A stretch of 64,000 nt of DNA. Origin: Shimazuella soli (GTDB taxonomy: Bacteria; Bacillota; Bacilli; Thermoactinomycetales; Thermoactinomycetaceae). Made by a program: the position numbers and the translations under genes. The notes beneath the pieces were generated by a model that did no database searches, was not told the DNA's origin, and saw only the letters and a list, made by a program, of their open reading frames with translations. How positions within the stretch are numbered: position 1 is the stretch's first letter; the number at the start of each line of letters is the position of its first letter. This document shows positions 11,148-19,353 of the stretch, in pieces. The stretch lies in assembly GCF_022511585.1 (NCBI RefSeq), contig NZ_JAKWBN010000001.1, forward strand, positions 170,269 through 234,268, read 5' to 3'.

Positions 11148-11783
11148 TTACTCTTCAATTTCATCATGGTGATGACGCTTGTGATGATGTTTATGATGAT
11201 GTTTGTGGTGGTGATCGTCATCATCATCGTCATCGTCGTCATCATCATCGTCATCGTCATCATCGTCGTCATCGTCGTCATCATCGTCATCGTCATCATC
11301 GTCGTCATCATCATCGTCATCGTCGTCATCGTCGTCATCGTCGTCATCGTCATCGTCGTCATCATCATCGTCATCATCATCGTCATCGTTGTCATCGTCG
11401 TCATCGTTGTCATCGTCGTCATCGTCGTCATCGTCGTCATCGTCGTCATCGTCATCATCATTGTCATCATCGTCGTCATCGTCATCATCATTGTCATCAT
11501 CGTCGTCATCGTCATCATAGTAATCTTCTGAAGTTGTGATGAGCTTTTCTTCCTGTTCTTCCTCTAAAGATGATATTTTTATTTCTTTTTCAGTTTTATC
11601 ATCTTTATAACTTATGGTAAGAGGGAGTTGACTGGTTCTTATTGTTCCTGCACCGAATAGATTTATGGTAATTTCCCCTTTATTTTCGTTTTTTGCTTTA
11701 TTTTCGAGAACTCGATCTACTTTTCTCACTGGTCTTCTAGAATATTTTTTTTTCTTTTTATGAATTCTTCTTTGCCAAGTCAT
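11148..11783 (-). CDS. basic N-terminal / poly-aspartate (~150 D) / His-Lys-rich C-terminal protein of unknown function (putative cation-binding)
   Basis: The minus-frame ORF has a unique 90-aa N-terminus and an HHHKHHHKHHHKRHHHDEIEE tail. It has an upstream RBS (aaggcaggtg) and a downstream terminator. The plus-frame poly-Val/Ile ORF is its mirror. Confidence 0.5.
   Translation of the reverse strand: MTWQRRIHKKKKKYSRRPVRKVDRVLENKAKNENKGEITINLFGAGTIRTSQLPLTISYKDDKTEKEIKISSLEEEQEEKLITTSEDYYDDDDDDDDNDDDDDDDDDNDDDDDDDDDDDDDDDDDNDDDDDNDDDDDDDDDDDDDDDDDDDDDDDDDDDDDDDDDDDDDDDDDDDDDDDDDDDDDDDDDDHHHKHHHKHHHKRHHHDEIEE
11213..11518. repeat. in-frame (GAY)n tandem codon repeat (~100 codons, mostly GAT/GAC, a few AAT)
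   Basis: gatgacgatgac... runs are visible directly and form the poly-Asp tract of the ORF above. Confidence 0.9.
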
Positions 11784-11932
11784 CCGAACTACACCTGCCT
11801 TATAAATGATAACTGATATAAGCTATAATATGGAAAAGTTCTGTTTTGGAGTGGTTATTTTATCTAGTATCTATACCTATTTCTCAAAATAAAAAACTCA
11901 CTTCTATTTGTTGCAAGAAGTGAGTTTTTGTC

Positions 11933-16796: not shown

Positions 16797-16908
16797 ATGT
16801 ACGAATTATAACACAGCAAGTTTGAAATAAGTTTATAGATTTATTGTGACAATGTTTTCTTCGCGAAGGTAAATATACCCAAGAAGAAAAGCCCGCATAA
16901 GGGGCTTT

Positions 16909-19353
16909 TTAATTATTTACGATAGGGGAGTTGTTTCCTCCATCTTTTGGAGCACCATTCGAACCACCTGAACCATTGTTGTTATTACTAGTTCCATTGT
17001 CATTGGATGATCCTCCATTATTAGTGGTTGTTCCTCCATTAGAGCCATCCCCAGAGCCGCCATTCGAATCTCCGCCGTTTGATCCATCACCTGATCCACC
17101 GTCTGAACTAGGAGGCTTATCGCCATCATTTTCATCTTTGTTTGGTGGAGGAGTGGAAGGAGTAGAAGGTTTGGTAGATTCGGACGATTTGTGGTTATTT
17201 TTCTTTTTATTTTTAGATTTTTCTTTTGCTGCATTTGCATCTTCATAACTTTTCTTTTTGTCGCATTCAAATCCGCATTTTTCTGGTCCTATATCCCCAG
17301 GATTAACGAAATCTGTTCCTCTAGGAATGATATCTGCTGCTTGTTCAATTGCTGCGTTAAAAATGTTGGCCCATGCTTTTTTAGAAAACTTATCATCTGC
17401 ATACATGGGGAAGTTATAGTCGTAACCGCTCCATACCCCAATCGTTACTTCAGGTGTATAGCCGATGAACCATAAATCTTTTTCATCTGAAGTAGTCCCT
17501 GTTTTGCCTGCTACTTCATACCCGGAAGGAATCTGTGCTCCAATGTAAGCTGCTGTACCGCTGAGAACCGTTTTTAAGATGCCCGTCATTTGATAAGCTG
17601 TTTGTGGTGAGAAGACTCGTCTTGGATTTTGTTTTCTTTCAAATAAAACTTTTCCATCAGCATCCGTTACTTTAGAAATCATATAAGGTTTGTTGTACAA
17701 GCCTCCATTTGCAAGAGTAGAGAAGGCAGCTGTCATTTTTTCCACGGTATAGCCATTTGTTGCCCCGCCGATAGCAGCAGCTTCTCCATCTTTAGGAGAA
17801 GGAGGCAGATTTAATTCCTTCAGGTAATTAAATCCTTTTTGATGTCCTAAGGCGTTAAATGTTTTGATAGCAGGAATGTTATAGGACCATTTTAAAGCAT
17901 CTTGAACAGTTACAAATCCTTTATAACTTCCATTTGCATTTTTGTAATAACCCGAGCCATCACTCTTCATAATCGGTTCATCGAGTATTTGCGAATGAGG
18001 AGATACAATTCCTTCTTCTATCGCTGGCCCATAAACAAGCAAAGGTTTGATGGAAGAGCCTGGCTGTCTGGGTACTTGCAGTGCGTGATCCTTTTGGTTA
18101 TCGTCAAATGACTCTGTTCCAGAAACAAACGCTAAGACAGCACCAGTCTTATTATTGATAATGGTTGCCCCAAGCTGTTCATGTGTTTGTTTTCCGGCAT
18201 ACGTACGATTGTGGAATTCCAATCCTTTTGTTGCAGCTTTGTTAACAGCATTGTAAAGTCCTTCATCAATCGTCGTATAGAAGCGAAAACCTCCAGTAAC
18301 AGCTTTCTTTTTATATTCCTCTAAAGTAGAACGATATTTCCCTTCTTTACTGAGTTGTTCCACGTCGAGGTGATCCATTTCCATCAAAGTCTCTGCGGCT
18401 TCATCTTCCATAGCAAACATGATGAATGGATATTTCTCATAACCATTATCAAAATCAGACGGTTTGGCAAGTGACTTTTTGATGTTGAAATGGATTGCTT
18501 CATCGTATTGTTTTTTGGTGATTTTTTTATTTTGAAGCATTTCGGTTAATACTAGTTTTAATCGCTTCATGCCGCGTTTATAGTTTTTTGGATCTTCATC
18601 AAGCGGATTCAATGCATTTGGACGTTGAACCATACCAGCAATGTATGCAGCTTGAGCGAGATTGAGTTCTTTAGGAGTTTTGTTAAAAAGTCCTTTTGCA
18701 GCGGCTTGAACGCCATACATCTTTCGGCCATTTGCACCTTTTCCAAAAAAGACGCTATTCATATAGTAAACGAGAATTTCATCTTTGCTGTACATCTGTT
18801 CCATGCGAAGCGCTAAAACAATTTCATTTGCTTTTCGTTCTATATCTTTTTTGCGGTTTTTTAGAACGATATTTTTGACCAATTGCTGAGTCAGTGTACT
18901 ACCTCCAGTAGTGACTTCACTACCAACGGCTTGCTGAAAAGCGGCACGGATGATAGATCGAGGAACAATTCCTTTGTGTGTATAGAAATCTCTATCTTCC
19001 ACAGAGATAAATGCATTGACCAAATAAGGAGTTACATCACTGACTTTTTTGATCATGCCACGATCATTATCAAAACGCAGTGCCCCAATTGCCACTGGCT
19101 TTCCATTTTTATCTGTGTTTTGGAAGTAAGCATAACTGGTTTGAAATAAACTGTTTAGTTCTTTGTCAAAGTCTTGTTTGGTGCGGACTTTTTCATCTTT
19201 TACAACAGCAGAGACGATACCAGCCCCTGCACCAATTACGATTGCTGCTATTGTCAATGCAAGAATTACAATAATAAAGAATGTTCGTATACTCCAACGT
19301 ACAATTTGGCTGGTGTCTACATGGGGTTTCTTTGTCCATTTTTGTAGATTCAC
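16909..19353 (-). CDS. class A penicillin-binding protein, paralog 3 (more divergent), Gly/Ser/Asn/Asp-rich tail
   Basis: GT51 (EDRDFYTHKGI, GGSTLTQQLVKN) plus transpeptidase motifs. Terminator at 16888-16912. Confidence 0.85.
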   Translation of the reverse strand: MNLQKWTKKPHVDTSQIVRWSIRTFFIIVILALTIAAIVIGAGAGIVSAVVKDEKVRTKQDFDKELNSLFQTSYAYFQNTDKNGKPVAIGALRFDNDRGMIKKVSDVTPYLVNAFISVEDRDFYTHKGIVPRSIIRAAFQQAVGSEVTTGGSTLTQQLVKNIVLKNRKKDIERKANEIVLALRMEQMYSKDEILVYYMNSVFFGKGANGRKMYGVQAAAKGLFNKTPKELNLAQAAYIAGMVQRPNALNPLDEDPKNYKRGMKRLKLVLTEMLQNKKITKKQYDEAIHFNIKKSLAKPSDFDNGYEKYPFIMFAMEDEAAETLMEMDHLDVEQLSKEGKYRSTLEEYKKKAVTGGFRFYTTIDEGLYNAVNKAATKGLEFHNRTYAGKQTHEQLGATIINNKTGAVLAFVSGTESFDDNQKDHALQVPRQPGSSIKPLLVYGPAIEEGIVSPHSQILDEPIMKSDGSGYYKNANGSYKGFVTVQDALKWSYNIPAIKTFNALGHQKGFNYLKELNLPPSPKDGEAAAIGGATNGYTVEKMTAAFSTLANGGLYNKPYMISKVTDADGKVLFERKQNPRRVFSPQTAYQMTGILKTVLSGTAAYIGAQIPSGYEVAGKTGTTSDEKDLWFIGYTPEVTIGVWSGYDYNFPMYADDKFSKKAWANIFNAAIEQAADIIPRGTDFVNPGDIGPEKCGFECDKKKSYEDANAAKEKSKNKKKNNHKSSESTKPSTPSTPPPNKDENDGDKPPSSDGGSGDGSNGGDSNGGSGDGSNGGTTTNNGGSSNDNGTSNNNNGSGGSNGAPKDGGNNSPIVNN

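Follow-up and report, generated by a model that had tools for sequence, protein, structure and literature searches.

Poly-aspartate (poly-Asp) binds Ca2+, and aspolin and calsequestrin are among its eukaryotic analogues. Asp runs of more than 100 residues have been reported in zebrafish (144 Asp) and sponge (120 Asp), and 88% of the codons in human Asp repeats are GAT (PMC5125637). Surveys of prokaryotic simple-sequence proteins found the abundance of Asp to be severely restricted (PMC1524752). The mean bacterial low-complexity region is 38 residues long, and acidic and His-acidic low-complexity regions coordinate Ca/Mg/Zn (PMC6821194). Our literature searches found no described bacterial protein of the poly-Asp kind. 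Here we examined a 64,000-nt stretch of DNA (the window) from Shimazuella soli, a soil spore former of the family Thermoactinomycetaceae, in which the interval between acsA and tyrS holds four open reading frames (ORFs), all on the minus strand. One encodes a protein with a long Asp tract (the poly-Asp gene) and the others encode three class A penicillin-binding proteins (PBPs), PBP-A, PBP-B and PBP-C. The initial annotation had described a block of this make-up, and the ORFs bear this out, the three tandem PBP genes being intact. Our analysis shows that the region is two separate things within a conserved housekeeping backbone, a PBP array and the poly-Asp gene. We hold the gene anatomy and evolutionary history given below with high confidence; for the explanation as a whole, inferred mechanism included, the chances appear evenly balanced.

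The poly-Asp gene and its surroundings consist of the following elements.

11148..11783, minus strand: poly-Asp gene, 211 amino acids, recognised from its ORF and orthologs and unannotated in public protein collections
11694..11783, minus strand: polycationic N-terminus, residues 1-30, net charge +11 by composition, its basic character kept in three species
11538..11708, minus strand: conserved N-terminal module, approximately residues 26-82, defined by alignments, with motifs ExKAKxEN, IxINLxG, QxPL, YKD and EKE
11214..11516, minus strand: Asp tract, residues 90-190, 101 codons (97 Asp, 4 Asn), mixed GAT/GAC
11148..11213, minus strand: C-terminal tail HHHKHHHKHHHKRHHHDEIEE and stop codon, His-rich in S. 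soli only
11069..11096, minus strand: terminator of the poly-Asp gene, a hairpin with a U-run after it (-13 kcal/mol over the whole 96-nt stretch, z = -3.8)
11824..11883, minus strand: conserved upstream region from the three-species alignment, with GAAATAGGTA (11874-11883), an ATAACCA block and CATATTATA (11824-11832, fits CATAnnnTA)

The extreme polyanion with a basic N-terminus that had been annotated is encoded by a real gene with orthologs in two other species. The Asp tract is likewise present, though at 101 residues rather than the ~150 first given, and the protein ends with the tail motif HHHKHHHKHHHKRHHH. Inspection of the N-terminus, MTWQRRIHKKKKKYSRRPVRK..., revealed no hydrophobic core of a signal peptide or transmembrane segment, and none was seen in the orthologs. 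A low-confidence single-sequence AlphaFold2 model, with a predicted local distance difference test score (pLDDT) of 56, contained four short beta-strands at residues 38-72, the rest being without regular secondary structure. We conclude that the poly-Asp protein is a cytoplasmic, largely disordered protein of the form 'cationic - small beta module - poly-Asp(100-170) - cationic'. As it has no export signal, it is expected to act in the cytoplasm; were it a product of sporulation, its place of action would be the mother cell. The N-terminal tryptic peptides predicted for the protein are GEITINLFGAGTIR and TSQLPLTISYK. Alternative frames across the tract, which would encode poly-Met/Thr or poly-Ile/Val, were considered and dropped, as only the Asp frame runs into the conserved N-terminal module. 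The Asp frame was chosen because this module is kept across three species and is preceded by a conserved ribosome-binding site (RBS).

Syntenic orthologs of the poly-Asp gene were found in S. kribbensis (L001:15041-15937) and S. alba (L002:17576-18361). They have the same design: a polycationic N-terminus, a conserved module of ~50 residues, an Asp tract of ~126-170 residues and a basic tail. The N-termini of the three species match one another by tblastn with E values from 1e-12 to 1e-22, and the reading frame stays open across 211-298 codons in all three despite saturated synonymous sites. The RBS and upstream blocks are also invariant in the three species at this level of synonymous saturation. 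The ratio of nonsynonymous to synonymous divergence (dN/dS) between the N-termini of the orthologs was 0.20-0.59 at a synonymous divergence (dS) of 0.7-1.8, compared to a dN/dS of 0.03-0.05 for the PBP-C orthologs. The poly-Asp gene is thus under purifying selection yet fast-evolving. In the sister genus the gene is absent, only 60 nt separating the last PBP gene from acsA. Collectively, these comparisons indicate that the poly-Asp gene is a real and genus-specific gene, which is predicted to be independently transcribed.

Codon use within the tract was analysed against the other genes of the window. The Asp codons of the tract are divided almost evenly (GAT 50 / GAC 47) compared to 78% GAT in the other window genes (binomial p = 1e-8), and GAC is enriched to a similar degree in both orthologs. 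The longest run of one codon in the S. soli tract is three (P = 5e-4 vs shuffles). Such codon mixing would keep the tract stable at the DNA level and fits selection for a slippage-resistant Asp run. A degenerate 9-nt period nevertheless persists in the tract; Tandem Repeats Finder (TRF) reported period 9 with a score of 344. This score and the orthologous genes in two other species show that the tract is not a chance feature. The initial annotation carried the caveat of an assembly error, and a mis-assembled repeat might have produced the Asp tract or the third PBP copy. A Shimazuella-like metagenomic contig built from public reads, L008 (12576-14876), does end inside its second PBP gene, which is consistent with paralogs or a conversion tract breaking short-read assemblies. 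However, the poly-Asp gene recurs with one design in three independent assemblies, two of which have three PBP genes, the tract is not a perfect repeat, and PBP-A and PBP-B differ by ~25% outside their conversion tract (see below), making an assembly artefact extremely improbable.

To place the poly-Asp protein among known families, we searched several sequence collections. The three poly-Asp proteins and the alternative-frame ORFs were all missing from a 15-billion-protein collection. Exact look-ups of the window's poly-Asp, PBP-C and acsA proteins also gave no match. In a word-indexed collection of 5.8 billion, the N-terminus used as a single sequence gave no match, and an alignment-based search built on the three species did not recover even the orthologs. 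The absence of the orthologs from protein collections indicates that gene callers missed the poly-Asp gene in all three genomes, an example of how current pipelines discard real, conserved genes of extreme low complexity. The N-terminus had no match in Pfam, NCBIfam or PADLOC and no homologue among plasmids and phages (tblastn) or in JGI metagenome patterns. Homology searching with the N-terminus, which had been suggested at the outset, thus ended with the orthologs of two species located by synteny and no other homologue. A phage or defence origin was considered and dropped, there being no significant match in PHROGs, PADLOC or the phage tblastn search.

The sole match in a phmmer search of 1.8 billion representative proteins was to Calx-beta repeats and was weak (E = 1.6e-4). 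It spans residues 38-79 (42 residues), which aligned to the C-terminal strands of the Calx-beta repeats of one protein. Pfam and PHROGs gave matches to Ig-like beta-domains only below threshold, and the Calx-beta family PF03160 was not matched in Pfam even at E values up to 10, with no match over the full domain of ~100 residues. Compared to Calx-beta and Ig-like domains, the Shimazuella module is ~45-55 residues long, about half a domain, and Ca2+-binding loops are not identifiable in it. We conclude that the poly-Asp gene is a new genus-restricted family that is like known polyacidic proteins only in composition.

A scan of metagenomes for (GAY)30 returned >120 loci, most of them eukaryotic-looking or non-coding and a few encoding bacterial-looking secreted proteins. 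Long (GAY)n tracts are therefore not rare in metagenomes, but their ORFs have no relationship to the Shimazuella gene, none of the loci being homologous to the N-terminal module. Bacterial-looking contigs L049 (GC 0.63), L054, L065 and L028 encode poly-Asp proteins (>30 Asp) that have either a signal peptide or a membrane anchor. Long Asp runs may be under-reported in prokaryotes.

What the poly-Asp protein does can be approached from its charge. An Asp run of 100-170 residues should take up numerous divalent cations with low affinity, or else attach to polycationic partners. The basic ends could anchor the protein on anionic surfaces, partly neutralise the tract or fold back against it. By analogy with eukaryotic poly-Asp, binding of Ca2+ or other metals by the tract is plausible. 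We propose that the protein may work electrostatically, binding or buffering divalent cations (Ca2+/Mg2+) with high capacity and low affinity, perhaps in the mother cell during sporulation. The cation-binding mechanism is put forward tentatively, at somewhat less than even chances, and the link to sporulation is more doubtful still. The lack of a signal peptide makes secreted mineral nucleation, as in shell proteins, unlikely. Compared to fish aspolin and the mollusc proteins Aspein and Asprich, the Shimazuella protein is alike in having a homopolymer of >100 Asp that makes up about half of a small protein, and in the cation binding expected of it. It differs in lacking homology to them, in its bacterial host, in having polycationic sequence on both flanks and in its mixed GAT/GAC codons. 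Of the two hallmarks of secreted shell proteins of the Aspein/Asprich type, it has the long poly-Asp (101 residues, 97 Asp) and lacks the signal peptide. If confirmed, it would be a bacterial counterpart to the eukaryotic poly-Asp proteins.

As a defining metal-binding feature, the His-rich tail did not survive comparison, as the HHHK repeats are limited to S. soli, the tail of S. kribbensis being Lys/Arg-rich and that of S. alba Arg-rich. A conserved His-rich segment, as in metal-binding proteins of the Hpn or His-tail type, is thus not found in the orthologs; the three species have a charge pattern in common, not a metal site.

Several observations weigh against a developmental cation buffer. 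The tail of S. soli is approximately neutral unless its His residues are protonated, and tail sequence is not conserved. The N-terminal module evolves fast, with dN/dS values up to 0.59 in a comparison of three species only. There is no sign of functional coupling between the poly-Asp gene and the PBP genes; it has its own promoter and terminator, and its product is cytoplasmic and the PBP domains are extracellular. A count on the upstream alignment found 'AC' at the sigma-K -35 distance in 0/3 species. Finally, consecutive acidic residues destabilise translating E. coli ribosomes, and protection by the nascent chain covers only 30-40 residues in the exit tunnel (bioRxiv 10.1101/2021.02.02.429294), so full translation of 101-170 Asp is not assured.

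Ribosome destabilisation raises the question of whether the ORF is productively translated at all. It could be a young or decaying ORF that grew from an expanded trinucleotide or 9-nt repeat and was retained by drift, or act only at the level of RNA or translation as a Mg2+-sensitive ribosome-destabilising sequence. The period-9 repeat structure would suit this explanation, as would the variation in tract length (101 to ~170 among species), C-terminal tails that are unrelated in sequence, the upper dN/dS values and the absence of the gene from the sister genus. Set against these are the open frames in three species, the conserved N-terminal module, RBS and upstream blocks, and the GAC enrichment and codon alternation, which indicate selection to encode Asp without slippage; the tails are moreover all basic. 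A regulatory role would lack a target, as the terminator is followed by the convergent acsA and there is no downstream gene to regulate. We therefore consider an untranslated ORF unlikely. The retention of an open frame and of basic tails past the tract suggests that the full-length product matters, and the poly-Asp gene is probably expressed and translated.

The puzzle is then how ribosomes pass through >100 Asp; in E. coli, a stretch of some ten acidic residues can be enough to abort translation. At its most ambitious, our proposal is a full-length polycation - poly-Asp(100-170) - polycation block polyelectrolyte, the first bacterial homopolymeric-Asp protein of such size, that would serve as a developmental Ca2+/Mg2+ store or a spore-surface polyanion, and whose synthesis would overcome, or be Mg2+-gated through, intrinsic ribosome destabilisation. 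We regard this extended version as speculative and, taken whole, improbable. If true, it would offer a natural test case for bacterial ribosomes translating extreme acidic runs, and solving the puzzle could reveal a factor or ionic condition that suppresses the destabilisation.

The same anatomy is also compatible with a charge chaperone, or a polycation or DNA mimic, that binds basic partners and not metal ions. Eukaryotic precedents are the polyD/E and prothymosin-type proteins. The lack of a signal peptide agrees with such a role, the basic termini imply polycation-polyanion contacts, and the poor conservation of the His-rich tail weakens a model with a specific metal site. However, no partner can be identified, and none of the neighbouring genes codes for a basic client. 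Candidate partners would be nucleoid or spore DNA-binding proteins, ribosomal proteins and basic coat proteins. The charge-chaperone explanation is given a low probability; with the present evidence it is indistinguishable from cation binding, with which it could also coexist.

Another candidate is a structural protein of the spore coat or surface, made late in the mother cell and providing an anionic, cation-loaded surface. CotC/CotU and CotG are low-complexity Bacillus coat proteins rich in simple sequence of the Asp/Lys/His/Tyr type. Like these, the Shimazuella protein is small, monocistronic, without a signal peptide, of simple sequence, lineage-restricted and fast-evolving, traits that are typical of Bacillales coat genes. 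It differs from CotC/CotU and CotG in having no homology to them and in lacking repeats rich in Tyr or Ser. Upstream of the gene, the three species all retain a -10-like CATAnnnTA, any sigma factor named for it being conjectural, and the upstream AAATAGGT block fits the GerE core, which we take to be RWWTRGGY, a short motif that may be matched by chance. S. soli itself forms spores (PMC9774768). Arguing against a coat protein are the missing sigma-K 'AC', the shortness of the motifs and the absence of any sporulation gene among the neighbouring genes scanned. Comparison of the promoter by hand with the sigma-K, E, G and H classes did not single one out. Given the -35 mismatch for sigma-K, we treat sporulation as a lead only, and a coat protein is in our estimation an improbable identity, on a par with the charge chaperone. 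Were the Ca2+/Mg2+ buffer or the spore coating true, either would bear on cation handling in endospore formation.

The other occupants of the interval are the three PBP genes, for which the elements are as follows (types 1 and 2 are the paralog clades described below).

11933..14290, minus strand: PBP-A, class A, type 2, 785 amino acids, Lys-rich tail
14469..16796, minus strand: PBP-B, class A, type 2, 775 amino acids, Gln/Asn/Thr-rich tail
16909..19353, minus strand: PBP-C, class A, type 1, 814 amino acids from GTG, Gly/Ser/Asn/Asp-rich tail
11892..11929, minus strand: terminator hairpin of PBP-A (-16.6 kcal/mol, z = -4.2)
14419..14462, minus strand: terminator hairpin of PBP-B (-21 kcal/mol, z = -5.5)
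16887..16909, minus strand: terminator hairpin of PBP-C (-15.5 kcal/mol, z = -3.5)
~14340-14355 and ~16840-16855, minus strand: CATTGTCACAAGAA sites, with counterparts at ~12500 in S. kribbensis (L001) and at ~12520 and ~15090 in S. alba (L002)

Shimazuella sp. AN120528 (type strain) has proteins identical to PBP-A and PBP-B, the NCBI model of PBP-B beginning at the second ATG (16775) to give 768 amino acids. For PBP-C, there is a public S. soli protein with 100% identity, whose model, at 782 amino acids, falls short of the ORF by 32 residues. A strong RBS precedes the GTG at 19353, and start codon and RBS alike are conserved in S. kribbensis and S. alba, suggesting that the longer form of 814 amino acids is more likely than the form of 782. 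All three proteins match the Transgly family PF00912 (E 1e-51 to 1e-54) and the Transpeptidase family PF00905 (E 1e-33 to 1e-36). Each has the GT51 motifs EDxxFxxHxG, GxSTxTQQ, RKxxE and KxxIxxxYxN as well as SSMK/SSIK, SYN and KTGT. A check of composition placed a hydrophobic 21-mer, the N-terminal membrane anchor, within residues 25-54 of each. Were the length difference of PBP-C to lie at its N-terminus (19257-19353, minus strand), the public model would start inside this anchor. All three PBPs are predicted to be active, membrane-anchored peptidoglycan synthases. Past the conserved C(x)FEC motif, PBP-A has a Lys-rich tail of 85 residues, PBP-B a Gln/Asn/Thr-rich tail of 69 and PBP-C a Gly/Ser/Asn/Asp-rich tail of 117. 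PBP-A and PBP-B are 79% identical over their full length, and either is 53-54% identical to PBP-C. The two had been annotated as ~85% identical, a figure reached, by estimate, when the tails are left out, and the third as diverged, which it is. From these comparisons, the three appear to differ mainly in the glycosyltransferase half and in the disordered extracellular tails.

To classify the PBPs, we compared them to curated models and structures. The best specific NCBIfam model was that of pneumococcal PBP1B (NF038274), with 402-441 bits against a cut-off of 1225. The PBP2A model gave 258-277 bits, and both the PBP2A and the PBP1A models were far below the PBP1B score; TIGR02074 (PBP_1a_fam) gave 457-466 bits, just below its cut-off of 508.75. 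The best match in the PDB was S. pneumoniae PBP1b (7zuh, 2jch; E = 5e-86). As the scores are far under the PBP1B cut-off, the Shimazuella proteins are related to PBP1b and not equivalogs of it. They share with it the GT51 plus transpeptidase architecture, the N-terminal anchor and the catalytic motifs, and differ in that their genes are 2-3 paralogs in tandem, subject to gene conversion. We take PBP1b to be of subclass A5, which presumably also holds B. subtilis PBP4/PbpD and not PbpF/PbpG. Pneumococcal PBP2A, for its part, is presumably of the PbpF-like subclass. In most Firmicutes the accessory gene rpdA (yufK) is reported to be co-located with pbpD (PMC12767342). The Shimazuella array contains no accessory gene. 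General scans around the acsA-tyrS interval showed no RpdA-like neighbour, though no search aimed at RpdA was made.

A conserved extended -10 element, TGnTAnAAT, precedes every PBP copy of the three Shimazuella species. Every type 2 PBP gene of these species additionally has a CATTGTCACAAGAA block ~40 nt upstream of the -10, which may be a candidate regulator binding site. These motifs point to a separate vegetative, sigma-A-type promoter for each PBP gene, with a candidate regulator site upstream of type 2. Hairpins with a U-run follow each of the four genes (z-scores -3.5 to -5.5). The terminator and the distinct low-complexity tail that had been annotated for each PBP gene were thus both recovered. 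Compared to B. subtilis PbpF/PbpG, these are likewise class A PBPs of an endospore former, but with upstream motifs of sigma-A type and not of forespore type. A dedicated spore-cortex role of the PBPs is not supported; the vegetative-type extended -10 elements and the proximity to pneumococcal PBP1b both tend to speak against the spore-cortex module that had been suggested.

We next asked how old the array is. A synteny scan with one genome per species, in which the backbone was checked by tblastn, showed that the order rpsD-(tyrS)-[1-3 PBPs]-acsA-ccpA recurs at six other loci of the family. S. kribbensis has two PBP genes and the poly-Asp gene, and S. alba has three and the poly-Asp gene. Thermoflavimicrobium dichotomicum has three PBP genes and no poly-Asp gene, and two Thermoactinomyces metagenome-assembled genomes (MAGs) have two PBP genes each. 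In the more distant Kroppenstedtia, a single PBP gene is divergent from tyrS and acsA lies three genes further. In a neighbour-joining tree of 30 PBP proteins with bootstrap, the family core formed two paralog clades, each with 99% bootstrap: type 1, containing PBP-C, and type 2, containing PBP-A and PBP-B. The type 1 gene always adjoins tyrS or rpsD. The existence of the two clades implies that the tandem pair predates the sampled genera, and the array appears to be ancestral to the family and not an insertion. A horizontally acquired island was considered and dropped in view of the normal base composition and the family-wide synteny.

These results bear on the initial annotation of an ~8.3 kb insertion, in which a recently inserted or duplicated module would serve the spore cortex or special wall synthesis together with a mineral-nucleating polyanion. 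Three tandem class A PBP genes are unusual compared to model Firmicutes, PBP-A and PBP-B have 92-100% identical DNA over 0.7 kb, and the poly-Asp gene is specific to Shimazuella, all of which would favour such a module. Against it stand 1-3 PBP genes in the same backbone across the family, the ancient paralog clades, normal base composition and vegetative-type promoters. Each gene is in addition a separate transcription unit, and with no export signal, extracellular nucleation would need lysis. The 'insertion' and 'recent' parts are largely refuted, and the module as a whole is very unlikely. An ancestral array that is stable across the family provides a natural system for asking what distinguishes redundant class A PBPs.

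Tails and flanking genes differ between the members of the family. In Thermoflavimicrobium (L003), there is no tyrS at the locus and rpsD abuts the PBP array. Its second PBP (L003 12392-14785) ends in approximately eleven perfect GGSGQT repeats, and its third is almost tailless, with 28 residues beyond CFEC. Throughout the family, the tails vary freely in length and make-up.

To determine the origin of the resemblance between PBP-A and PBP-B, we compared them by sliding window and by trees of the separate halves. Two matching tracts were delimited.

12290..13000, minus strand: gene-conversion tract in PBP-A, transpeptidase domain, 92-100% nt identity to PBP-B vs ~75% elsewhere
14780..15490, minus strand: matching gene-conversion tract in PBP-B, from sliding-window identity and a tree switch

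Over the first ~450 codons, PBP-A and PBP-B have 71-79% nt identity, no higher than with the genes of other species, compared to 93-97% over codons ~451-700. In the tree of the glycosyltransferase half, PBP-A branches basally to every other type 2 gene of Shimazuella (bootstrap 80 and 100), and in that of the transpeptidase half PBP-A and PBP-B are sisters (bootstrap 100). The N-termini and tails show further mosaic relationships among the copies, and third copies fall within type 2, grouped by species in the full-length tree. This indicates that the A/B resemblance is a mosaic, probably produced by gene conversion over ~0.7 kb. The duplication would be at least as old as the Shimazuella species and would have been followed by loss or homogenisation in some lineages, with a recent conversion of the transpeptidase domain between PBP-A and PBP-B. 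More generally, type 2 copy number would shift by duplication and loss while transpeptidase halves are homogenised by gene conversion. Duplication, as first annotated, is thus part of the story. Its recency does not hold, either for the array, given the ancient type 1/type 2 split, or for the pair PBP-A and PBP-B, whose high similarity is limited to the ~0.7 kb tract. One implication is that beta-lactam target domains can be homogenised within one genome.

The four genes are framed by the following elements.

9171-10889, plus strand: acsA, left flank of the four-gene block
19403..19634, plus strand: T-box leader of tyrS (Rfam RF00230, 97.1 bits), divergent from PBP-C, at the edge of the array
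19889-21151, plus strand: tyrS ORF, right flank of the four-gene block

The wider order is aroA - 751-amino-acid ORF - ccpA - nucleosidase - DUF1540 - acsA - four genes - tyrS, followed beyond tyrS by ABC exporter - HAD - rpsD - trmB. The base composition of the four-gene region is that of its surroundings, with no anomaly. In the 751-amino-acid ORF (4485-6740, plus strand) between aroA and ccpA, an HTH_OrfB_IS605 domain (E = 6e-15) occupies the N-terminus, and there is a weak match of SseB-like type. The ORF has no recognised transposase or nuclease core and is of odd architecture amid housekeeping genes. In Shimazuella, a PNP_UDP_1 nucleosidase and a DUF1540 protein (window 8094-9050, plus strand) sit between ccpA and acsA. 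Beside acsA in Kroppenstedtia (L010 16745-18628) there is an unassigned ORF of 211 amino acids, followed by a CBS/ACT protein and a histone-deacetylase-type protein. This trio seems to resemble acuA/B/C, and acu genes seem to be missing at this position in Shimazuella. On the other side of the array, the tyrosyl-tRNA synthetase (TyrRS) at the syntenic position in the Thermoactinomyces MAGs (L004 8378-9502, L005 5035-6162) and Kroppenstedtia (L010 6441-7538) has ~27% identity to Shimazuella tyrS, which suggests that tyrS was swapped for another TyrRS type at the same locus in those genomes. In S. soli, the mechanical tyrS ORF (468 amino acids) begins just 3' of the T-box leader and terminator and includes an extra stretch (19745-19888, plus strand). 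The real start is probably Met49 at 19889, giving 420 amino acids, a length that matches relatives (420 amino acids in L008).

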